Assembly: GCA_020053735.1 (NCBI GenBank)
Contig: JAGVMP010000015.1
Span: 12,708-76,707 of the forward strand
DNA: 64,000 bases
DNA from: Pseudomonadota bacterium
GTDB lineage: Bacteria; Pseudomonadota; Gammaproteobacteria; Burkholderiales; Methylophilaceae
Direction: 5' to 3'
The notes under the pieces were generated by a model. The model was not told the DNA's origin. It made no database searches and was given only the letters and a program-made list of their open reading frames with translations. Within the stretch, counting starts at the first letter, position 1; every line of letters starts with the position of its first letter. Below are positions 2,507 to 62,946 of this stretch, one piece after another. A program made the position numbers and the translations under genes.

Positions 2507-2560
2507 TGTCGGGTAGTGAAATTAAAACGTTTTTACATCTTTAATTACTAAAAGTCATTG

Positions 2561-2592
2561 GCCTGCAGACCAATATCCATGCGGGTTGCGGA
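2561..2592. repeat. Family A palindrome (short form)
   Basis: gcctgcagaccaatatccatgcgggttgcgga. Confidence 0.85.
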
Positions 2593-2634
2593 GGAATAAG
2601 TTTTCATTTGTAAAGTGAGGCAACCTCACCAAAG

Positions 2635-3558
2635 TCAGGTGTCAAGTGATTCGTTCCACTCGGAGCCCAGCACCCAGCTAAGCGCAGACATGCGGCCGCT
2701 CAGCAAACCCCATTCGAAATCATCCCAACCTAGATTCTTTTTACCAAACTTCTGTTCGATTCGTCTTGCTGCCTTTTTCGCTGTAACCAAAATTTCTTCT
2801 TGATCAGGGCTGAGAGTTTCTTCACCAGTGGCGAGTCTACGCAGCCAATTCTGGTGGCGATTCCACCAAATCTTGTCCCATAACTCGCTGTATTCCTTGA
2901 GAATTGCCGCATCATTACGACGAAGTACCATTGGCCAATATTCACCGTCTTCTTCGTCTGATGGGATCCACTCAACCATGTCCCCATCATCGTTGTAACC
3001 GATTCGGTGGCCATTGGGCCCGATTTCACCTGACTTAAAGGGTTCGTTCGTTTGCGACACATTACGCTGAATGTCGCGCACTGGATGCAGCGCTAAAAAT
3101 TCTCGGTTCAGTTTGCGCAACTGTAGAACGAGGTCGTGTTCAAACCGCCTGATTTCTATACCTTCTTCCTGCAACCTTAGTTCGCCAAGACCTCGAATTA
3201 TATAGTTCGGGTCAAGTGTACCGATAACGACACGTTTTAGTTTTCGCTCGATAACCCTGTCGGAACATGATATCTTTGGATGGTTCCTGTGCGTACATGG
3301 CTCTAGTGTTGAAAAAAGCGTGGCACCCTCTAAGTCAACACCTTGCAGCTTGCGCTCTAATAATGTGTATTCGGCATGTTCACCTGCTTTTAACTCACCA
3401 CGATACGCTGCAGCTAATACTATGCCATCTCGTGCCACAACGGCGCCTACCTTTGGCGATACTTTATTCTCTTCACTTACACATTTAGCGGCAAGCTCGA
3501 TGGCCAGTTGCATCAATTCCCGCTCGCTGTAAGCCATATCAGGGGCAATCACCGTCAT
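2635..3558 (-). CDS. RibD-like zinc-dependent deaminase domain fused to an uncharacterised C-terminal domain
   Basis: 'VGAVV', HAE and '[15 protein letters not shown]' deaminase motifs; no RibD reductase domain; ATGA overlap with glmM stop. Confidence 0.75.
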
Positions 3559-4916
3559 GTAGCTACAGTCTTTACTACTTCCGCAATTTCCTCCGCCAAT
3601 TTTTGCACCAGCTTTGCATCTTGGCCTTCTACCATCACGCGGATTTTTGGCTCGGTACCTGATGCGCGTAGCAACACACGTCCTGTACCCTTTAACTCAG
3701 CTTCGGCACTTTTAACCGCTTCTTGAAGCTGTGGCATACTCAAATCTAATTTCGCTTGGTTTGCTTTAGGTTGATATGTCACGTTAATCAGCACTTGCGG
3801 GTACAGCACCAGCTCTGCGCGCATTTGGGTGAGCGTTTTGCCACTTTGTTTTAACGCATGCAGCACTTGCAACGCTGCGATAATCGCATCGCCACTGGTG
3901 TGCTTGTCTAGTGTGAGAATATGCCCAGAATTTTCGCCACCCAGCTTCCAATTTCTTTCATTCAACAGTTCTAGCACATATCGATCGCCCACGTTAGCGC
4001 GCGCAAACGGAATTTGGTGTTTTGCCAGTGCATGCTCAAGCGCCAAGTTTGTCATTAAAGTACCCGCAACGCCGCCTTTTAACTTACCTTTGGCATATAA
4101 ACCCAACGCAATAATATATAAAAGCTGGTCGCCATCGAGCAGATTGCCGCCGGCATCCACCATCATCACGCGGTCGCCATCACCATCAAAGGCAATGCCT
4201 AAATCGGCTTGATGTTCCACTACCGCTTTTTGTAAGGCTTGCGGATGGGTGGAGCCGACTTGCTCGTTAATATTCAAGCCATCGGGTTTGTTGCCAATCG
4301 CAATAATTTCTGCGCCAAGCTCGTGAAACACATCGGGTGCCACATGGTAAGTGGCACCGTGCGCACAATCCAGCACAATTTTTAGGCCGCGTAAGTCAAG
4401 GTTGCTGGGAAAGGTGCTTTTGCAAAACTCCACATAGCGCCCAGCAGCAGCATCAATACGCCTTGCTTTGCCTAACTTGGCCGATTCCATCACTTGCATC
4501 GGTTTGTCTAGCTCAGCCTCAATCGCATGCTCAATGGCATCTGGCAGCTTTGCGCCTTCAGCCGAAAAAAACTTAATGCCGTTATCATAATACGGGTTGT
4601 GTGAGGCAGAAATGACGATGCCCGCCTGCGCGCGCAAAGCACGCGTGAGATAGGCGACAGCTGGTGTAGGCATCGGGCCTACCAGCAACACATCAACCCC
4701 TGCCGCAGACAGGCCTGCCTCTAATGCGGCCTCAAACATATAGCCTGAAATACGTGTATCTTTGCCAATCAGCACTGCGGGGCGTTTTGTTTTTGAATCT
4801 GCCGAAGCAAGCACACGGCCTGCCGCATAGCCCAAACGCATCACAAAATCTGGCGTAATGGGGTGCTCGCCTACTTTGCCGCGAATGCCATCGGTACCGA
4901 AATATTGTTTGCTCAT
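3555..4916 (-). CDS. glmM: Phosphoglucosamine mutase
   Basis: 'YFGTDGIRG', 'ISASHNP', 'FDGDGDR', 'RASGTEP'; start set at MSKQ (4916). Confidence 0.97.
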
Positions 4917-4983
4917 ATTTATATTATCCAAAACTTCTTTAAATTTATCTTACTTAGTAAACCGTTACGAGCTACATCAATAC

Positions 4984-5090: not shown

Positions 5091-5912
5091 TTACATTATG
5101 GCAGAAACGACTTTGAGTGCTTCTACTGTTGCCTTTACATCATGCACCCGCAGTATTTTAGCACCCTTCATTGCGGCTATCACGCTTGCCGCGATGCTAG
5201 CGTAAAGCCGCGCGTCAACATCATTGCCCGTCATTTGTCCCAATACAGATTTGCGCGACAGCCCCACCAGCAACGGCTGGCCTAAATCTGCGAAACTTTC
5301 CAGATTTTGCAGTAGCGTAATGTTATGTTCGCGTGTTTTGCCAAAGCCAAAACCTGGATCAAGTAAAATAGTATATTCCCCGCAACCCGCATGTATGCTT
5401 GCTTGCAGGCGTGTCTTTAAAAAGGCTTTTATATCATTTATTACATCATTATATTGCGGATTTTGCTGCATGGTCTGCGGTGTGCCCTGCATGTGCATCA
5501 GGCATACGCCTACGTTCGAACTTGCAATAATTTCAACAGCGCCTACTTCTTGCAGCGCACGCACGTCATTTACCATGCTAGCACCAGCTTTAATCGCGGC
5601 TTGCATCACGGCGGGCTTGTAAGTGTCGATAGAAATAGGAATGCTCACCTGCTTTACTAGGGCCTCAATCACTGGAATGACGCGATCCAGCTCTTCTTGC
5701 AGGCTGACAGGCGTAGCGTTGGGGCGGGTGGATTCGCCACCAATATCCAAAATGCTAGCGCCCTCATCAGCTAATTTAAGTGCGTGCGCAACAGCTAAAT
5801 TGGTTTGCGAGAATTTGCCGCCATCAGAGAATGAATCAGGCGTGACATTGACAATACCCATGACTTTGGGGCTTGCTAAATCAAGCTGGAAATTACCGCA
5901 GTTGAAAATCAT
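5091..5912 (-). CDS. folP: Dihydropteroate synthase
   Basis: 'MGIVNVTPDSFSDGG', 'DIGGESTRP', 'DPGFGFGK', 'GLSRKS', 'LRVHDV'. Confidence 0.97.
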   Translation of the reverse strand: MIFNCGNFQLDLASPKVMGIVNVTPDSFSDGGKFSQTNLAVAHALKLADEGASILDIGGESTRPNATPVSLQEELDRVIPVIEALVKQVSIPISIDTYKPAVMQAAIKAGASMVNDVRALQEVGAVEIIASSNVGVCLMHMQGTPQTMQQNPQYNDVINDIKAFLKTRLQASIHAGCGEYTILLDPGFGFGKTREHNITLLQNLESFADLGQPLLVGLSRKSVLGQMTGNDVDARLYASIAASVIAAMKGAKILRVHDVKATVEALKVVSAIM

Positions 5913-6076: not shown

Positions 6077-7966
6077 CTAACTTTTAGCTGTGGGTTGTGG
6101 CACAGGTGTAGCGCTATTACCAGCTGAGCCAGTATCACTCGGCTTTACCTTTGGCTGGCGCGGTTTAGGTGCACGTACTGGAATGCCCGCCATAATATCG
6201 TTAATTTGGTCGGCGTCAATGGTTTCATATTCCATCAGCGCCGCTGTCATTGCTTCAACTTTATCACGGTTATCTTCTAGTAATTTACGTGCAATTCCAT
6301 ATTGCTCATCCAAAATACGACGGATTTCTGCATCCACTTTTTGCTGCGTGGCCTCAGAAACGGTTTTACTACTCATGCTACCAAAAAATGAATCTTGCTC
6401 ATCGCCCGCGTATACCATGGTGCCCAGCGCATCACTCATACCGTATTTAGTCACCATCGCGCGCGCAAGCTTGGTGGCGCGTTCAAAGTCATTGCTGGCA
6501 CCAGTACTCATTTGATGCATAAAGATTTCTTCGGCAATACGACCGCCAAATAAAATCGAGATTTCTTCCAGCATTTTGTCTTTATAGTTACTAATGCGAT
6601 CAAACTCAGGCAGTTGCCAAGTTAAACCTAGCGCCCAACCACGCGGCATAATGGTGACTTTATGCACAGGATCTGCTTTTGGTAACAACTTCGCCACCAC
6701 GGCATGGCCAGATTCGTGATAAGCCGTGTTACGACGCTCTTCTTCACGCATGACCATACTTTTTCTTTCTGGACCCATGTAGATTTTATCTTTTGCGTCT
6801 TCAAAATCTTCCATGTCTACCGTGCGTTTGCTACGGCGCGCGGCAAATAAAGCAGCCTCATTCACCAAGTTGGCTAAATCTGCACCACTAAAACCAGGCG
6901 TACCACGCGCGATAATATCGGCTTTCACATCTGGGTCAATTGGCACTTTACGCATATGTACCAATAAGATTTGTTCGCGGCCTTTAATATCAGGCAAGCC
7001 CACCATCACTTGGCGGTCAAAACGACCAGGGCGCAATAAAGCTTTATCTAATACGTCGGCACGGTTGGTTGCCGCAATAATAATTACGCCTGAGCTGGCT
7101 TCAAAACCATCCATCTCCACCAATAATTGGTTAAGCGTTTGTTCGCGTTCATCGTTGCCGCCGCCAGTACCCGCACCACGGCTACGGCCCACGGCATCGA
7201 TTTCATCAATAAAGATAATGCAAGGTGAGTTCTTTTTAGCGGTTTCAAACATATCGCGCACGCGCGCCGCACCCACACCGACAAACATTTCAACGAAATC
7301 AGAGCCTGAGATTGAGAAGAATGGCACTTTCGCTTCACCCGCAATGGCACGTGCAAGTAAGGTTTTACCAGTACCCGGAGGGCCTACAAGCAACACACCG
7401 CGCGGAATACGACCACCTAATTTTTGGAACTTAGCCGGCTCTTTTAAAAAGTCGACTAACTCAGTCACTTCTTCTTTAGCTTCATCACAACCAGCCACAT
7501 CGGCAAAAGTGGTTTGATTTGAACTTTCGTCTAATTGACGCGCTTTACTTTTACCGAATGAGAAAGGGCCACCACCTTTGCCGCCGCCTTGCATTTGGCG
7601 CATAAAGAAAATCCATACACCAATGAGTAGAATCATTGGGAACCATGACATGAAAATATCCATCAACAATGAGCGTTGTTGTTCTGGTTTAGCCTCAACC
7701 TGCACATTGTATTTGAGCAAATCGTTCACCATCCACAAATCATTCGGCGCGTAGGTGCTGAACTCTTTGCCATCTTGCGTTTTGCCACGCACGACGCGGC
7801 CGTCAATTTGCACACTGGCAATACGGCCATCTTTCACTTCTTGCATAAATTGTGAGTATTTAACCTGGCTATCTGCTTTACCTTGACCAGAAAACTGGTT
7901 AAACACGGTCATCAGCACTAGCGCCACCACCAACCAAATTGCAATACTTTTTGCGATGTTATTCAA
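6077..7966 (-). CDS. ftsH: ATP-dependent zinc metalloprotease FtsH
   Basis: Two TM helices, Walker [12 protein letters not shown] 'ALLRPGRFD', HESGH zinc site; TTG start. Confidence 0.98.
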
Positions 7967-8758: not shown

Positions 8759-9067
8759 ATGAAACTAAACACCAAACAAATAGCGCATTTACGCGGCTTA
8801 GCGCATAGCTTAAACCCTGTGGTGATGATAGGCAACAACGGGCTGACCGACAATATTATCAAGGAAATTGAGCTTAATTTAAACGCGCATGAGTTGATTA
8901 AAATTCAAGTGGCGGGCGAGGACCGCGATGCGCGCAAAGCCATCTATGTTGAAATTTGCAGCAAAACCAACGCGGTTGCGGTGCATCACATCGGCAAGCA
9001 GCTGGTCGTTTATCGTGCCAGTGAAACAGTGAAAGAAAAAGCGAAAATTCACATTCCTAAACTATAA
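8759..9067 (+). CDS. yhbY: CRM-domain ribosome assembly RNA-binding protein
   Basis: 'LRGLAHSLNPVVMIG', 'HELIKI', 'IGKQLVVYR'; divergent from rlmE; ATG at 8759. Confidence 0.92.
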   Translation: MKLNTKQIAHLRGLAHSLNPVVMIGNNGLTDNIIKEIELNLNAHELIKIQVAGEDRDARKAIYVEICSKTNAVAVHHIGKQLVVYRASETVKEKAKIHIPKL

Positions 9068-9071
9068 AAAA

Positions 9072-9229
9072 CATGCCCTGCAAACCAATATCCATGCGGC
9101 CTATCAGGCATGAATAACCAGCTTTGACGTGTAAATAACCAACTTTTAGTTGGTATATTTCACGGGCAAGCCAAATACTGGCTTAGCTGGTATATTCTGC
9201 GGGGACAACCCTTGCGGTTGCAGAGCATG
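9072..9229. repeat. Family A long form with nested hairpin modules
   Basis: catgccctgca..gcagagcatg termini; internal duplicated hairpin. Confidence 0.85.
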
Positions 9230-9258
9230 CCTTTTGATGTTGATTTAAAAAGTGCTTT

Positions 9259-22405: not shown

Positions 22406-22423
22406 GTAAAAATGAAGAAATAT

Positions 22424-22462
22424 ATGCCCTGCGAGGCAATATCCATGAGCCTTACAGGGCAC
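22424..22462. repeat. Family A palindrome (short form)
   Basis: atgccctgcgaggcaatatccatgagccttacagggca. Confidence 0.85.
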
Positions 22463-22715: not shown

Positions 22716-22778
22716 AGATTGCTTTGCTTCACTCGCAATGACAAATCAAAATGGATTCCCGCTTTCGCGGGAATGACG
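22716..22778 (-). repeat. Family C tandem units
   Basis: gattgctttgcttcactcgcaatgac plus ggattcccgctttcgcgggaatgacg. Confidence 0.85.
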
Positions 22779-22788
22779 GTGCGGAAGT

Positions 22789-25786: not shown

Positions 25787-26800
25787 ATGGATAAACGCGC
25801 GCAAATCTTACTTAAAACCTTGGTAGAACATTACATTAGTGATGGTCAGCCCATTGGCTCGCGCACCCTCTTGCAGCACAGTGGCTTGGATGTAAGCCCT
25901 GCAACGATTCGGAATGTGATGAGCGATTTGGAGCACTTGGGCTTTATCGCCAGCCCGCACACATCAGCCGGACGCATCCCCACACAAAAAGGTTACCGCC
26001 TGTTTGTGGATACCTTGCTGACCGTGCAACCGCTAGAAACCAAAGCGGTAAACCAGTTAAGAAGCGGCTTAAGCTCACCCAACCAAAACGAGCTGATTAA
26101 CAGTGCAGCCGATATGCTGTCACAACTCACCCAGTTTGCTGGTTTGGTAATGATACCCAAGCGTAAAGCTTTAAGTTTCAAGCATTTAGAGTTTCTACCG
26201 CTGACCGAAAAAAGGATATTAGTCATCATCGTCACCAGTGACGGCAACGTGCAAAACCGCATCATTTTGAGTGAAAAGCCATACTCAGCCAGTGAACTCA
26301 CTCAGGCTAGCAACTATTTTAATGCCAATTTTTCTGGCCAAACCTTTGATGAGGTGCAGCAAAAACTGCATACCGAACTCAAACAAATGCAAACAGATAT
26401 GAACGTGTTGATGAACGCCGCCCTGCAGGCCAATATCCATGCGGGTGATGGCAATGGTGTTGTGATAGCGGGTGAACGTAACTTACTGAATATTGACGAA
26501 CTTTCTACCAATGTGAATAGCCTACGCAAATTGTTCGAGATTTTTGAGCGCAGAACCTCGTTGATGCAACTTTTGGACAACAGCCAGCACGCAGAAGGTA
26601 TCCAAATTTTTATCGGTGGCGAAAGTGGTTATCTTCCGTTAGATGAATGCAGCATGGTGACCGCGCCGTATGAGGCCGATGGTCAAGTCGTCGGCACACT
26701 AGGTGTAATAGGTCCGACTAGAATGGCCTATGAACGGGTGATACCGATTGTAGATGTCACAGCAAAATTACTATCAAACGCTCTGAGTTCAGGTGCTTAA
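25787..26800 (+). CDS. hrcA: Heat-inducible transcription repressor HrcA
   Basis: 'PIGSRTL', 'SPATIRNVMSDLE', 'PHTSAGRIPT', 'GVIGPTRMAY'. Confidence 0.97.
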   Translation: MDKRAQILLKTLVEHYISDGQPIGSRTLLQHSGLDVSPATIRNVMSDLEHLGFIASPHTSAGRIPTQKGYRLFVDTLLTVQPLETKAVNQLRSGLSSPNQNELINSAADMLSQLTQFAGLVMIPKRKALSFKHLEFLPLTEKRILVIIVTSDGNVQNRIILSEKPYSASELTQASNYFNANFSGQTFDEVQQKLHTELKQMQTDMNVLMNAALQANIHAGDGNGVVIAGERNLLNIDELSTNVNSLRKLFEIFERRTSLMQLLDNSQHAEGIQIFIGGESGYLPLDECSMVTAPYEADGQVVGTLGVIGPTRMAYERVIPIVDVTAKLLSNALSSGA

Positions 26801-31725: not shown

Positions 31726-32750
31726 TGGCTGACAAAATTCTAGTCCTTGGTCCAGCGTGGGTAGGCGATATGGTACTGGCACAAAGCCTATTTAAAACGC
31801 TCAAACTCAACCGACCTGATTGCATTATTGACGTTGCTGCTCCCGCGTGGACATTGCCTTTACTAGAGCGTATGCCAGAAGTTTCTGGCAAGATTGCTCT
31901 GCCATTTAAACATGGCGAACTGGCTTTTTGGCAGCGCATTCAATTTGGCAAAAGCTTAAAAAATGCAGGTTACAGTCAAGCAATCATTCTCACCAACTCG
32001 TTTAAATCAGCTTTGCTGCCTTGGGCGGCCAGCATAGCAAAACGCACCAGCTTTTTAGGTGAAATGCGCTACGGTTTAATTAACGATATCCGCCCACTTG
32101 ATAAAACCAAGCTCAAAAAAACGGTAGAACGGTTTGTGACACTAGGTTTAGATAAAGATGTATCTTTGCCAAAAACCATTCCAAACCCATACTTAAACAG
32201 TGCCCCAGAAGCCGCATGGATATTGGCTTACAGGCTAGGTGTTTTGGATAATAAGAGTAAAGTGCTGGGCATTTGCCCAGGTGCAGAGTACGGTGAGGCC
32301 AAACGCTGGCCAGCCGAATACTATGCCGAAGTAGCCAATGATGCACTCAAAAAGGGTTGGCAAGTGTTATTGTTTGGGTCAGATAAAGACATGCCAGTAA
32401 CCACTCAAATCAACCAGCTTACGCAAAATAAATGTGTTGATTTAGGTGGCAAAACTAAACTGGGCGAAGCGATAGATTTGATGTCGATTTGCGATACCGT
32501 GATTAGCAACGACTCTGGTTTGATGCATGTGGCCGCCGCGCTAAGTAATGAAACTAGCGCAAAAAAACTCATCGCCATATTTGGCAGCAGCGACCCTTAC
32601 CACACGCCACCTATGCAGCCAGATGCAGTGATAGAATATTTAGGCTTAAGTTGCAGCCCTTGCTTTAAGCGTGAGTGCCCGCTTAAAGATGAGGCGCATT
32701 TAGCTTGCTTAAAAAATATCACGCCGCAGTTGATTGCCACTAAAATTTAG
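31725..32750 (+). CDS. waaF: LPS heptosyltransferase II
   Basis: 'PAWVGDMV', 'PGAEYGEAKRWP', 'NDSGLMHVAAA'. Confidence 0.94.
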   Translation: MADKILVLGPAWVGDMVLAQSLFKTLKLNRPDCIIDVAAPAWTLPLLERMPEVSGKIALPFKHGELAFWQRIQFGKSLKNAGYSQAIILTNSFKSALLPWAASIAKRTSFLGEMRYGLINDIRPLDKTKLKKTVERFVTLGLDKDVSLPKTIPNPYLNSAPEAAWILAYRLGVLDNKSKVLGICPGAEYGEAKRWPAEYYAEVANDALKKGWQVLLFGSDKDMPVTTQINQLTQNKCVDLGGKTKLGEAIDLMSICDTVISNDSGLMHVAAALSNETSAKKLIAIFGSSDPYHTPPMQPDAVIEYLGLSCSPCFKRECPLKDEAHLACLKNITPQLIATKI

Positions 32751-42672: not shown

Positions 42673-42709
42673 TGCTAAATCTCAATCAATAAATGCGAGA
42701 AAAAATATC

Positions 42710-42746
42710 TGCTCTGCAAGCCAATATCCATGAGGCTTGCAGAGCA
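42710..42746. repeat. Family A palindrome (short form)
   Basis: Perfect 13-bp arms tgctctgcaagcc/ggcttgcagagca around aatatccatga. Confidence 0.9.
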
Positions 42747-43457: not shown

Positions 43458-43514
43458 GTTTAAGTTTTTACCTAAATTAAATAGTTGGAATAATAATGAT
43501 ATTTAAATTTAAAT

Positions 43515-43542
43515 TGGATTCCCGCCTGCGCGGGAATGACGG
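43515..43542 (-). repeat. Family C single unit
   Basis: tggattcccgcctgcgcgggaatgacgg. Confidence 0.85.
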
Positions 43543-45593: not shown

Positions 45594-45632
45594 CATGCCT
45601 GCAAACCGCATGGATATTGGCTTGCAGGCATG
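45594..45632. repeat. Family A palindrome (short form)
   Basis: catgcctgcaaacc-gcatggatatt-ggcttgcaggcatg. Confidence 0.9.
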
Positions 45633-45665
45633 CTATTTTAATAATTTGATGTTTTATTTTAGTGG

Positions 45666-47394: not shown

Positions 47395-48927
47395 TCATTC
47401 ACTCATCTCTTTATTAGCATAGATCCCCGCTTTAATTAAAATTGCGGGGTCGGGATAAATCACTTTAAATGTTTTCACGAACGCATTATACAGGGCTGGC
47501 TCATTCTGCCAATTTTGCATAAAACGATGCAAATCTTTTAAATGCGCAACACTGCTGGTGAAATGAGTGCGGTGTTGGCGCATGCTATCTAAATCTATCA
47601 GCAATGGCTGCGCACCTTGCATTTTGATGTTGGTGGCTTTCATATCGCCATGCGAAATATGCAGCAGATAAAGTTTGTAAAAAAGCGTTGCAATATTTTT
47701 TACTGCCTCAGCGCGCTGGGATTTATTTTGTGTTTGAGCAAAATATTGGGCAACATCGGGTGCATCAGTATATTCTGCTAAAAAATAAGCTTTGCCTCTA
47801 AACACTCCCAAACTACGATGCTCGATGAGCGCAATTGGCTTTGCTGTTGCAATCTTCAATATTTTAAGCCGATGTGCATTCGCCCATGACGCCGCAGCAC
47901 GGCTTTGACGAAAGGCGCGACTGATGCCATGCCAAAAGTTTTTGATGTTATAGCGCTTAATGACTATCTTTTTATCATCCATTTCTACAAGCGCGACTGT
48001 GCAAGTGTTGCTATTTTTAAGTAGATTCTGAGTACCAATTAACGCATCTAAATCCTCAGTAAAGTCGGTATTTTCCGCATCGCTGGAAGCCAATATCCAT
48101 GCGCCTTTCATGCATGAATAACCAGCTTTAGCTGGTATATTCTGCGGGGACGACCCCTGCGGTTGCAGAGCATACTTTTTCACATCTGTGCACTGCCGAA
48201 AAACTTTTTTATCTGCATAGGCAGATGCTGCCTTGATACGATGTCGCTCAGATAAACGGCTGATATCTGAAGCTACAAGCTCAACACTAGGGTTCGCCAT
48301 GTGATATTGCATTAAAAGTTTAGGCATCCATGCTAAAACCTCGAGCACATCAAATTTGGACAAAAGAACGGCAAAATTTGATGAAGCTTGTTGGTAAGAA
48401 ATAACATCGTATTGGCGAATACCATCGCCATCAATGCTATAAAGTTGCTGACCATCAAACAAAAAGTTTTTAAGATATAAATCTGTTTGCATTAAACGCG
48501 CATGGTGATGCTGACCAAGCGTCTGAGCAAGCATAGAGGCCAACTCTAATCGTTGTGACGCATTACGCTGCACCCATACTGATTCGACATTCTGACTATG
48601 AGGGATAGCTTCAAATATCAATATTTCTGTATCATCAAGCGTGTCAATAAGCAATAATTTTGAAGTGGCGATACTTGCGGCAATGAGTGCGTCCACACCT
48701 TGTTTATCTCTTTGTGCATAGCGCTTAGCGCCATTGCCAATAAACAACTTAGCATACACCGCCTGCCCTTTCCAAACACCTCGGCACACCAAACGCTTAT
48801 TGGCTACTCGACGTACCACTTGCTCCACTATAAGCGCGTCACCATTACTTAGCCAAAGCGAAAATGTTTGATTCTCATCATTTGATAACGCAGACAAATT
48901 GTTTAGCAAAGCGAATTGATCTGCCAT
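47395..48927 (-). CDS. Two-domain LPS kinase (Kdo/WaaP family)
   Basis: Two kinase-like halves ('QTDLYLKNFL..IDGD' and 'HGDMKATNI..IDLD'); start MADQ overlaps upstream stop (TAATG). Confidence 0.8.
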   Translation of the reverse strand: MADQFALLNNLSALSNDENQTFSLWLSNGDALIVEQVVRRVANKRLVCRGVWKGQAVYAKLFIGNGAKRYAQRDKQGVDALIAASIATSKLLLIDTLDDTEILIFEAIPHSQNVESVWVQRNASQRLELASMLAQTLGQHHHARLMQTDLYLKNFLFDGQQLYSIDGDGIRQYDVISYQQASSNFAVLLSKFDVLEVLAWMPKLLMQYHMANPSVELVASDISRLSERHRIKAASAYADKKVFRQCTDVKKYALQPQGSSPQNIPAKAGYSCMKGAWILASSDAENTDFTEDLDALIGTQNLLKNSNTCTVALVEMDDKKIVIKRYNIKNFWHGISRAFRQSRAAASWANAHRLKILKIATAKPIALIEHRSLGVFRGKAYFLAEYTDAPDVAQYFAQTQNKSQRAEAVKNIATLFYKLYLLHISHGDMKATNIKMQGAQPLLIDLDSMRQHRTHFTSSVAHLKDLHRFMQNWQNEPALYNAFVKTFKVIYPDPAILIKAGIYANKEMSE

Positions 48928-54593: not shown

Positions 54594-54689
54594 ATGCCCT
54601 GCAGAGCTCATGAATATTGGGTTTCACGCATGAATAACCAGCTTTAGCTGGTATATTCTGCGGGGACAACCCCTGCGGTTGCAGGGCAT
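54594..54689. repeat. Family A long form (96 bp)
   Basis: TIR atgccctgca/tgcagggcat; internal hairpins accagct/agctggt and gggg/cccc. Confidence 0.9.
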
Positions 54690-54741
54690 CATTTTATTCT
54701 CGACGCTATTTAAGCAGCTACAAACAAAATGCAAACCAGCT

Positions 54742-60249: not shown

Positions 60250-60366
60250 TGGATTCTTCACTACACTCAGAATGACAATTCAAAATGGATTCCCGCTTTC
60301 GCACCACAGGCACTCCGATTTACTAAGTGCTTAAGCACTTAGTAAAGTCGTATGCGGGAATGGCGG
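60250..60366 (-). repeat. Family C tandem units, second with an internal insertion
   Basis: ggattc..gaatgac plus ggattcccgctttcgc-[51 bp]-gcgggaatggcgg. Confidence 0.8.
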
Positions 60367-60378
60367 CTGTGTGAGCAT

Positions 60379-60417
60379 ATGCTCTGCAGACCAATATCCA
60401 TGCGGCTTGCAGGGCAT
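60379..60417. repeat. Family A palindrome (39 bp)
   Basis: atgctctgcagaccaatatccatgcggcttgcagggcat. Confidence 0.9.
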
Positions 60418-62514: not shown

Positions 62515-62574
62515 GTTTGTGTCAGTTGAAAGTTACATTTGCATGAAAAATGTGACAGGAACACTAAATAAAAT

Positions 62575-62677
62575 ATGCCCTACAAGGCAATATCCATGCG
62601 GGTTTCAGAGCATATATTTTGGCGTATGAATAATGTGCATTTGCACATATATTCTACGGACAAGACCCTTGCGGTCT
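62575..62677. repeat. Family A long-form variant
   Basis: atgccctacaaggcaatatccatgcgggtttcagagcat plus module 2 with atgtgca/tgcacat stem. Confidence 0.85.
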
Positions 62678-62946
62678 TATGTTTCAATTAAACTATTTTG
62701 AATCGCAATTAACTCTGCATTTGCATCACTAAAGTCTTCATATTTTTTGCCGTTTGTTCTAGCATACCAATACTTACTGTTCCACGCATCACCTTCAATT
62801 TTATGTAATACCGCGTGTATCCAATTGGCCATTGGGTCTGAGTAATCTTGCGCAATATTGTGCGACTTGTCCCAATCCCCCTCCAGCGCGACCTGTACTG
62901 CAATTAATAATGCTGGCTTATTCATTCTCTGACTCAAAATAGCCAA
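62677..62946 (-). CDS. Conserved hypothetical protein
   Basis: 'GDWDKSH', 'WIHAVLHKIEGD.WN..YWY'. Confidence 0.65.
   Translation of the reverse strand: MAILSQRMNKPALLIAVQVALEGDWDKSHNIAQDYSDPMANWIHAVLHKIEGDAWNSKYWYARTNGKKYEDFSDANAELIAIQNSLIET

Follow-up and report, generated by a model that had tools for sequence, protein, structure and literature searches.

Within a 64,000-nucleotide stretch of a Methylophilaceae genome (contig JAGVMP010000015.1, positions 12,708 to 76,707; hereafter the window) there is an open reading frame (ORF) at 2635..3558 on the minus strand that directly follows glmM, the gene for phosphoglucosamine mutase. The 307-residue product joins an N-terminal RibD-like zinc deaminase, here called the head, to a C-terminal domain, here called the tail, which is a widespread and previously undescribed domain found on a range of unrelated enzymes. 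On sequence grounds a one-gene anti-phage system is the most likely identity of this gene, with a riboflavin enzyme being a less likely one. In more specific terms, we would place slightly above an even chance the proposal that the ORF encodes a one-gene defence protein whose deaminase is directed at nucleotides and is regulated by the tail.

The gene is unlikely to be a housekeeping gene because the reductase is missing, the RibD score falls below the cut-off, the same slot lacks the gene in three close relatives, and full-length relatives are limited to ~116 of 185,579 species-representative genomes. It behaves as a single-gene unit: it has no conserved neighbor, and nucleotide similarity between copies is confined to the ORF and a short leader. 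The architecture is modular, as the same tail is found on many heads, proteins consisting of the tail alone exist, and the tail mostly lies at the extreme C-terminus. The features of the ORF and its immediate surroundings are given below, with the evidence for each in brackets.

2635..3558, minus strand: whole ORF of 307 residues plus stop, with deaminase head, linker and conserved tail (translation; full-length homologs; AlphaFold2 model)
3094..3558, minus strand: RibD-like zinc deaminase domain of the cytidine deaminase (CDA) fold, residues 1–155 (Pfam PF00383; NCBIfam RibD half-match; PDB 2hxv and 2b3z by sequence and fold)
3370..3378, minus strand: H61-A-E63 catalytic and zinc motif (invariant in 42/42 family members)
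3265..3300, minus strand: P87-C88...C98 zinc-ligand loop, C-x9-C, with invariant R91 and K95 (42/42 members; aligns to the RibG C74...C83 loop)
3205..3213, minus strand: D116-P-N118, aligned to the RibD DPN motif (42/42 members; alignment to 2b3z)
3025..3093, minus strand: linker of low model confidence, residues 156–178 (predicted local distance difference test score, pLDDT, ~51–76)
2917..3024, minus strand: tail sub-domain 1, a three-stranded beta-meander, residues ~179–214 (predicted model and conservation)
2638..2916, minus strand: tail sub-domain 2, a three-helix core, residues 215–307, the widely shared module (987 clusters; multi-head fusions)
3555..3558, minus strand: ATGA start/stop overlap with glmM (sequence)
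3555..4931, minus strand: glmM, outside the system and given for context (it closes the conserved block ftsH-folP-glmM)
2605..3561, no strand: strain-specific inserted segment, the ORF plus ~30 bp (blastn synteny breaks; flanks common to relatives)
2615..2629, no strand: short hairpin GTGAGG-CAA-CCTCAC, 5 nt past the stop codon (read from the sequence; weak, and unscored by the terminator scan)
2550..2593, no strand: host repeat resembling a repetitive extragenic palindrome (REP) (repeat copies; terminator-like site on the minus strand at 2575-2556)

The deaminase head

The translation matches the C-terminal end quoted in a preliminary description of this DNA, and the assignment of the first ~155 residues to a RibD-like zinc deaminase is agreed on by Pfam, NCBIfam, the PDB and Foldseek. 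Pfam dCMP_cyt_deam_1 (PF00383) matches residues 12–114 with an E value of 6.5e-14 and 52.1 bits, against a gathering cut-off of 25, and there are weaker scores for Inv-AAD (38 bits) and MafB19-deam (30.7 bits against a cut-off of 27, under the stronger PF00383 match). The N-terminal half of the NCBIfam RibD model aligns to residues 16–156, with a weak score for the NCBIfam TadA model as well. Searches of PDB sequences return 2hxv (E 1.7e-19, residues 15–151) and 2b3z (E 9e-17), and identity to RibD deaminase domains is 35–39% over ~150 residues. An AlphaFold2 model of the whole protein has a mean pLDDT of 90; when it is searched with Foldseek the best match is again 2b3z (E 2e-12, root-mean-square deviation ~2.1–2.4 Å), and RibD, TadA and dCMP deaminases all superpose.

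The preliminary description had read intact HAE and PCxxC-type motifs in this region. The HAE motif and a PC...C pair are indeed intact, but the literal PCxxC is not there, as the two cysteines have the C-x9-C spacing of RibD. HAE, P87-C88, C98, R91, K95 and D116-P-N118 are invariant in all 42 of the aligned full-length relatives. Alignment to Bacillus subtilis RibG shows that the DPN motif, which has a ribose-binding role in RibG, is retained together with H90, the equivalent of RibG H76; the latter is, with N23, H42, K79 and T80, presumably one of the substrate-contact residues of the RibG deaminase pocket. Because the catalytic motifs are invariant and the DPN motif and fold are of the RibD type, the enzyme looks intact and active, with a pocket that would suit a ribosylated base.

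The protein does not appear to be a bifunctional RibD. Its score against the RibD equivalog model TIGR00326 is 67.8, where the cut-off is 156.35, and covers model positions 1–134 only, while the score against NF008052 is 58.3 with a cut-off of 500. There is no RibD_C reductase domain: Pfam gives no match past residue 156 and the fold of the tail is unrelated. The family is also far from the near-universal distribution of RibD. The reductase has thus been replaced, as had been proposed, by a domain rich in tryptophan (10 Trp in ~143 residues).

The tail domain

The tail comprises residues ~179–307, and full-length and tail-only structure predictions are in agreement on its fold. Three strands (185–188, 194–199 and 207–213) form a beta-meander with the motif GPNGxRIGY...GDxVEWIP...WP..LRRND, and this is followed by three long helices (216–244, 253–271 and 280–296) that carry the core motifs WDKIWWNRH...DFEWG. 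Across the family the signature reads WxRH...DFEWG...SALxWVLGxEWxxLDT. The conserved ...EWxxLDT terminus coincides with the end of the protein: of 270 collected proteins that contain the tail, 212 have no residue after it.

No match to the tail was obtained in Pfam, NCBIfam, PHROGs or PADLOC. Against the PDB the best Foldseek match has an E value of 0.94 and the best profile match one of 1.2, and nothing in the PDB or BFVD falls below 0.001. The lone BFVD match is marginal (A0A8S5R321, a 92-residue Siphoviridae protein, over the helices; E 5.5e-3, TM 0.73 on the target). In contrast to this lack of annotated matches, a HMMER scan of 1.84 billion representative sequences places the tail in 987 clusters at 50% identity (E<=1e-3), of which 68 score at E<=1e-30. 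Three proteins of 238–269 residues (P0150, P0248 and P0173 in our collection) consist of two tandem tail copies with no enzymatic head, which hints that the domain pairs with itself.

Exchange of heads on a constant tail

The same tail is found behind a series of different enzymes. DUF4062 proteins of ~358 residues from Alphaproteobacteria, Planctomycetota and Acidobacteriota, among others, have a tail 57–74% identical to that of the window protein. Further heads are TIR_2, HNH_3, radical SAM/DUF5131 and a sigma-70 region-4 helix-turn-helix (HTH); P0124 has a membrane-spanning N-terminus ahead of the tail, and some proteins are the tail alone. In proteins of ~340 residues with a PIN_12/DUF4935 head (PF16289, E 1e-26) only the helical core is shared, so that the beta-meander, present in the deaminase and DUF4062 fusions, is absent from them. 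These PIN_12 proteins correspond to the fusion of the C-terminal segment to PIN-like domains that the preliminary description had mentioned. Exchange of the head on one tail is therefore seen for deaminase, DUF4062, TIR_2, HNH_3, radical SAM and PIN_12.

Some deaminase members are longer, at 380–490 residues (P0125, P0132, P0136, P0142, P0144 and others), and have an extra variable region of ~100–190 residues before the deaminase. Read by eye only, this region appears winged-helix-like in P0136 and has paired CxxC-type cysteines in P0142 that suggest a zinc ribbon. Such extra N-terminal regions could be the real specificity determinants of the longer members.

Several of these fusions are carried by mobile elements. 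PIN_12-tail proteins are found on 41 plasmids, and one is in the cargo of a gamma-mobile-trio island, a class of element in which defence genes have been shown to abound. On a Methylocystis plasmid, a DUF4062-tail protein adjoins an IS6 transposase and an MqsRA toxin-antitoxin pair. Contigs of the IMG/VR collection contain stand-alone proteins of 93–126 residues made of the tail or its helical core (L087:7989-8363, L094:7998-8279, L098:4935-5243 and L101:5079-5459, where L numbers are those of the loci in our survey). These proteins may act as decoys or inhibitors; alternatively, the contigs may be islands that have been mis-called as viral.

Insertion behind glmM

The ORF is the last gene of a same-strand run that begins with ftsH (6077-7966), folP (5091-5912) and glmM (3555-4931). 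Homologs of the GlmM protein place the host in the genus Methylotenera. The end of glmM reads ...GCT ACA TGA, and the deaminase-tail ORF starts at the ATG embedded in ACATGA, so the reported ATGA overlap with the glmM stop can be read directly from the sequence. Three Methylotenera relatives, whose GlmM proteins are 94–98% identical to that of the window, keep the order greA...ftsJ-ftsH-folP-glmM and the downstream HAD, PQ-loop and PAP2 genes. What follows glmM is different in each. In L081 (6363-7364) there is an unrelated ORF of 299 residues with no Pfam or PADLOC match; in L082 (6363-6475) the slot is empty; in L083 (6363-6723) there are ORFs of 74 and 44 residues, the first with a weak glyoxalase/Ble-like match at its N-terminus. 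An esterase-like gene is also absent in L083. In Methylotenera the position directly behind glmM is a cargo site whose content varies between strains.

In comparison with the relatives, blastn synteny breaks at window positions 3562-3571 and 2604/2557, and the strain-specific segment is therefore the ORF plus ~30 bp. Over its last 4–5 codons the glmM of the window reads K-T-V-A-T-stop, where the relatives have KKATE or KKVAE. The closest foreign copies have 80–83% nucleotide similarity to the window ORF over 3525..2635, halting at the stop codon. When the foreign copies at L104, L106 and L107 are compared in pairs, two of the three pairs are similar from 45–60 nt 5′ of the ATG onward, and the similarity does not go beyond the stop; the exchanged unit is therefore essentially a bare gene with a short leader. 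The foreign copies have a conserved leader, …GCATGGTAGAAAGC…GGAG…GC-ATGA, at L104:4160-4200, L106:4540-4577 and L107:7880-7918. The window junction at 3559-3575 may keep a few leader bases, though the similarity is too short to call. No compositional sign of insertion was seen, the guanine-plus-cytosine (GC) content of the ORF being 0.47–0.49 and equal to that of its flanks.

Between glmM and the ORF no promoter-like or terminator-like site rises above shuffled expectation, and the sole terminator-like site 3′ of the ORF is the REP stem with its T-run (minus strand, 2575-2556). Because there is no promoter or terminator between the two genes and only the REP stem downstream, co-transcription with glmM is likely, and the ORF is probably read through from the ftsH-folP-glmM transcript. 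The preliminary description had gone further and proposed that the overlap couples the gene to an essential operon; this is not supported, as the slot differs in three close relatives. From the sequence comparison the adjacency to glmM is a strain-specific accident of a single-gene insertion of ~0.95 kb and not a conserved arrangement.

Distribution and gene neighborhoods

The full-length relatives in these ~116 genomes (<0.1% of the species representatives) are 60–89% identical overall, and 60–80% identical across Burkholderiales, Pseudomonas, Verrucomicrobiota, Solirubrobacterales, Mycobacterium, Arthrobacter, Acidobacteriota, Chloroflexota, Gemmatimonadota, Myxococcota and NC10; the copies near ShosTA and HsdR listed below are 82–86% identical. 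Because copies with this level of identity are scattered over many phyla, the pattern indicates that the gene has spread horizontally. When all ORFs of 80 loci were clustered no conserved neighbor was found, and the gene was never next to rib genes. Every copy that was examined closely is cargo of a mobile or defence region, as follows.

L104 and L105: nSTAND3 (PADLOC PDC-S73) and DUF4145
L106: family gene directly after type I HsdR
L107: complete ShosTA (ShosA 1e-73, ShosT 3e-53), CAP12 TIR, putAbiC and an integrase
L108–L110: Pseudomonas integrative and conjugative element (ICE), adjoining HEPN proteins
L111: Paraburkholderia relaxase/ParA region
L115 and L116: small integrase island
L118: conjugative element with an MmeI-type enzyme, a TIR-BrxR protein and a NucS-like gene, and a weak uracil-DNA glycosylase (UDG)-like gene immediately downstream

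The UDG gene of L118 (9067-9693) is a weak Pfam match that lies right 3′ of a 316-residue family member on the same strand and was seen once; this single neighbor would fit a mechanism of C-to-U change in DNA. Among the 150 nearest neighbors of 40 loci, the defence genes include a CBASS cyclase with phospholipase effector, pAgo with Aga nuclease, PDC-S06, PDC-M24A/B, AriA (twice) and a type IIG restriction-modification enzyme, and the mobility genes include five integrases, AlpA, TrwC and a resolvase. On IMG/VR contigs, which may be prophage or island calls, the family has two full-length copies and a further 17 that are partial or related to the tail. No homolog was found in 50,697 sequenced phage genomes with the window tail and a stand-alone viral-contig tail as queries.

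The fold search and the surveys of domain fusions and neighborhoods that the preliminary description had proposed thus gave no PDB fold match for the tail, multiple heads, and neighbors of defence or mobile character. Its suggestion of a candidate effector in defence or toxicity is supported, over a riboflavin role, by the patchy homologs in defence and mobile islands and by the presence of the tail on PIN, TIR-like NADase, TIR, HNH and radical-SAM heads. It had also named the opposite outcome, homologs universal at this locus with a role in riboflavin synthesis; instead the gene is absent in three relatives and scores 67.8 against the RibD cut-off of 156.

Repeats and other features of the window

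The repeat that follows the ORF, reported in the preliminary description as a family A repeat, is confirmed as the REP-like palindrome at 2550-2593. It is an intergenic, genome-wide host element with the core CTGCAgaCCAATATCCATGcGGcTTGCAG, which occurs at least 14 times in the window, with copies in either orientation. L081 has a related REP copy at the same position and the empty slot of L082 has none, so its presence coincides with cargo at this site. We considered the REP as part of the mobile unit and rejected it, as the strict core pattern found 0 copies in the eight foreign homolog loci searched. Two further repeat families were found in the window. Copies of the second, of 74 nt, often directly adjoin REP copies, which suggests that the two make up a composite intergenic element.

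2550-2593, 9065-9108, 22416-22459, 26410-26453, 42701-42744, 60371-60414, 62567-62610: REP-like copies
65-109, 32201-32245, 45595-45639 and others: REP-like copies in reverse orientation
9161-9234, 48106-48179, 54622-54695, 62618-62691: second repeat family, 74 nt (…AGCTGGTATATTCTGCGGGGAC.ACCC.TGCGGTTGCAGAGCAT…)
22743-22779, 43506-43542, 60277-60313: third repeat, a short hairpin in three copies, GGATTCCCGC-TTTC-GCGGGAATGACGG

Neither a paralog of the deaminase-tail ORF nor a ribD gene was found in the 64-kb window, and an exact look-up of the protein in public assemblies gave no record. The mechanically called glmM ORF opens at a TTG (window 4917-4931) and gives 458 residues, where database relatives and a copy of the same protein have 453; translation probably starts at an ATG (MSKQYFG...) five codons further into the ORF.

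Proposed mechanism and alternative explanations

In the mechanism that we propose the N-terminal zinc deaminase would be the effector, and the tail, with its beta-meander and three-helix bundle, would be an auxiliary regulator that keeps the deaminase quiet. An infection-associated cue would switch the deaminase on, probably through ligand binding and a change of oligomeric state. The active enzyme would then most likely convert a ribose-containing pyrimidine or purine nucleotide, a substrate proposed because the RibD-type pocket keeps the DPN motif and basic loop residues. Depletion or corruption of the nucleotide pool would stop phage replication in a manner resembling abortive infection. 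In this Methylotenera strain the gene landed as a single-gene insertion of ~0.95 kb exactly at the glmM stop. A precedent is the head-plus-auxiliary layout of Swarozyc and Evangelion, which this architecture matches.

A number of observations weigh against this proposal. The enrichment of defence genes around the homologs is a count without a background model and so is suggestive, and the window copy itself has housekeeping genes for neighbors and no defence island. PADLOC matches neither the protein nor the tail. The tails of deaminase and DUF4062 fusions are 57–74% identical between different phyla, which is unusually conserved for a phage sensor; such conservation is more easily reconciled with a conserved ligand, oligomerization or recent spread than with a tail that recognizes a variable phage protein. 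AlphaFold2 gives no confident interface between head and tail (predicted template modeling score 0.57 despite a pLDDT of 90). The equivalents of RibG N23, H42, K79 and T80 are replaced, so the substrate is not readable from the sequence. Finally, in a search for evidence of expression no run held above 5% of the words, and no run of RNA was among them.

Two alternatives keep the protein as a toxic effector and change what it acts on or for whom. The deaminase could edit phage DNA or RNA (C-to-U or A-to-I), with the damage being mutagenic or finished by uracil excision. This would sit well with the scores of the head against Inv-AAD (38 bits), MafB19-deam (30.7) and, weakly, TadA, with the UDG-like gene on the same strand 3′ of one homolog, and with sister heads that cut nucleic acid (PIN_12 and HNH). 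We nevertheless consider editing improbable: the best matches by sequence and fold are RibD domains, which act on a free ribosylated pyrimidine phosphate, the C-x9-C loop and DPN of that type are kept, the UDG neighbor is weak and single, and there is no recognizable nucleic-acid-binding domain. An equally improbable explanation is that the gene is a selfish fused toxin-antitoxin, an addiction gene of mobile elements whose head is a toxin and whose tail is an inhibitor in cis, with no specific anti-phage role. The toxin-like heads, the single unit and its carriage by ICEs, plasmids and integrase islands would all agree with this, and tail-only proteins could be free antidotes. However, one small domain is unlikely to directly occlude five unrelated catalytic folds, the neighbors include many dedicated anti-phage systems beyond mobility genes, and the window copy persists in a chromosome without an element to stabilize.

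The remaining alternatives take the gene out of host defence altogether. It would be very unlikely that this is an ordinary metabolic enzyme, a stand-alone riboflavin or nucleotide-salvage deaminase with a regulatory tail that is co-expressed with cell-wall and folate genes. Although the closest characterized relatives are RibD deaminase domains at 35–39% identity, and the translational overlap with glmM and a GC content equal to the flanks could be read in this way, the slot in three close relatives is without the gene, which occurs in <0.1% of species genomes from many phyla, is never beside rib genes and has no conserved neighbor; its RibD score is far under the cut-off with the reductase missing, and the tail is common to RNase, NADase and DNase heads. 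The least probable of all is a moron of phage origin that serves the phage in nucleotide modification or counter-defence. The two full-length and 17 partial or tail-related copies on IMG/VR contigs and the resemblance of the 92-residue Siphoviridae protein (BFVD A0A8S5R321) to the helical core point in this direction, yet two queries found no match in 50,697 phage genomes, and most copies are chromosomal, ICE or plasmid cargo adjoining host defence genes, with the IMG/VR contigs themselves possibly being prophage or island calls.

A bolder version of the single-gene defence reading can also be put forward, although we think it rather unlikely. Here the tail would be an undescribed portable control domain that gates at least five unrelated enzymes (deaminase, PIN RNase, TIR and DUF4062 NADases, HNH nuclease and radical SAM). 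All would answer one highly conserved cue of infection and not a variable phage protein; a host factor, a nucleotide or some structure in nucleic acid could be that cue. The head would define a new branch of nucleotide-directed immunity, with a ribosylated base as its target that is neither dCTP nor ATP, and the tail-only proteins of viral contigs would be decoys that poison the switch.

If the single-gene defence reading is true, it would make a deaminase-headed addition to the immune proteins in which one gene encodes an effector with an auxiliary domain, and would assign a function to a widespread unannotated domain (987 clusters) and to the C-terminal part of DUF4935 proteins, so far unexplained. 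The fusions being natural head-swaps, one trigger would be expected to act on all five enzyme types that carry the tail. A RibD-type deaminase effector would extend nucleotide-pool immunity past dCTP, dGTP, ATP and NAD. The locus would also illustrate how a defence-type gene can join a core operon as an ORF alone, unaccompanied by any visible mobility gene.

Comparison with known systems

The deaminase domains of RibD and RibG (PDB 2hxv, 2b3z and 4g3m) share with the window protein the CDA fold, the HAE and PC-x(8-9)-C zinc site, the DPN motif and H90 (RibG H76). Those enzymes carry a reductase and are near-universal, whereas the window protein has no reductase, has other residues at RibG N23, H42, K79 and T80, scores below the equivalog cut-off, lies outside rib operons and is horizontally scattered. 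Nor does it appear to be a secreted polymorphic deaminase toxin of the MafB19 or DddA-like kind. Such toxins have an N-terminal secretion or trafficking region, a C-terminal toxin and an adjacent immunity gene, whereas here the deaminase comes first, after a lead-in of 11 residues, and no gene is conserved downstream.

Nucleotide deamination as a defence is known from several systems. AvcD is a dCMP deaminase with an N-terminal P-loop domain, RdrB of RADAR is an adenosine deaminase of the amidohydrolase fold that needs the ATPase RdrA, and Kongming is a multi-gene system. The outcome that we propose, an infection-triggered deamination of nucleotides that halts phage replication, would be like that of dCTP deaminase/AvcD, RADAR RdrB and Kongming KomA. 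To our knowledge none of AvcD, RdrB or Kongming has the window tail. A PADLOC scan of the window protein gave 0 families at E<=1, and hence none of AvcD/dCTP deaminase, RADAR or Kongming, and neither the P-loop domain of AvcD nor the RdrA ATPase has a counterpart in the protein or in a conserved neighbor over 80 loci. CapRel combines an N-terminal toxic enzyme and a C-terminal regulatory or sensor domain in cis in a single chain. The layout of such fused toxin-antitoxins is similar but the domains are unrelated, and the window tail serves at least five enzyme folds.

DUF4935 proteins are monocistronic, with no assigned function and a C-terminal region that resembles no known structure (Matelska et al. 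2017, PMC5499597). Like the window protein, the DUF4935/PIN_12 (PF16289) proteins have a C-terminal three-helix core (KVWYNRH...DFEWGxLNGKLSALRWVLGDEWDxLDT) and occur on plasmids; unlike it they have a PIN RNase head and no beta-meander, and their core is 32–43% identical to the window tail. Cosus (Brc24) is a validated single-gene PIN12 anti-phage integron cassette. We considered it as experimental support for the tail and rejected it, since its sequence, which starts MDEIELDFGAITIDN and ends ...DWRSEYEDEEL, is without the window tail.

In layout the window protein resembles Swarozyc and Evangelion, anti-phage systems of a single gene that combine a TIR-like NADase of the DUF4062 type with an auxiliary domain at the C-terminus that varies between proteins. 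Neither system works without the auxiliary part, and that of Swarozyc switches the enzyme on by binding the portal of the phage (bioRxiv 10.64898/2026.05.01.722283; 10.64898/2026.06.25.731849). The auxiliary domain of KpSwz is described as an HTH/winged-helix fold and the auxiliary segment of Eva01 as “short” (same two preprints). In our own survey the one enterobacterial DUF4062 copy that was inspected (Salmonella, from a plasmid collection) is a head-only match cut by an IS3 element. As in the window protein, an N-terminal effector and a C-terminal auxiliary domain are combined in one polypeptide, the distribution is patchy through horizontal gene transfer, and the genes are found in defence islands and on plasmids. 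The differences are that the window head is a deaminase and not DUF4062, and that the auxiliary domains, which we compared by description only, are described differently. The window tail is itself one of the auxiliary domains of DUF4062 proteins, carried here by a protein that lies outside that family because it has no DUF4062 domain.

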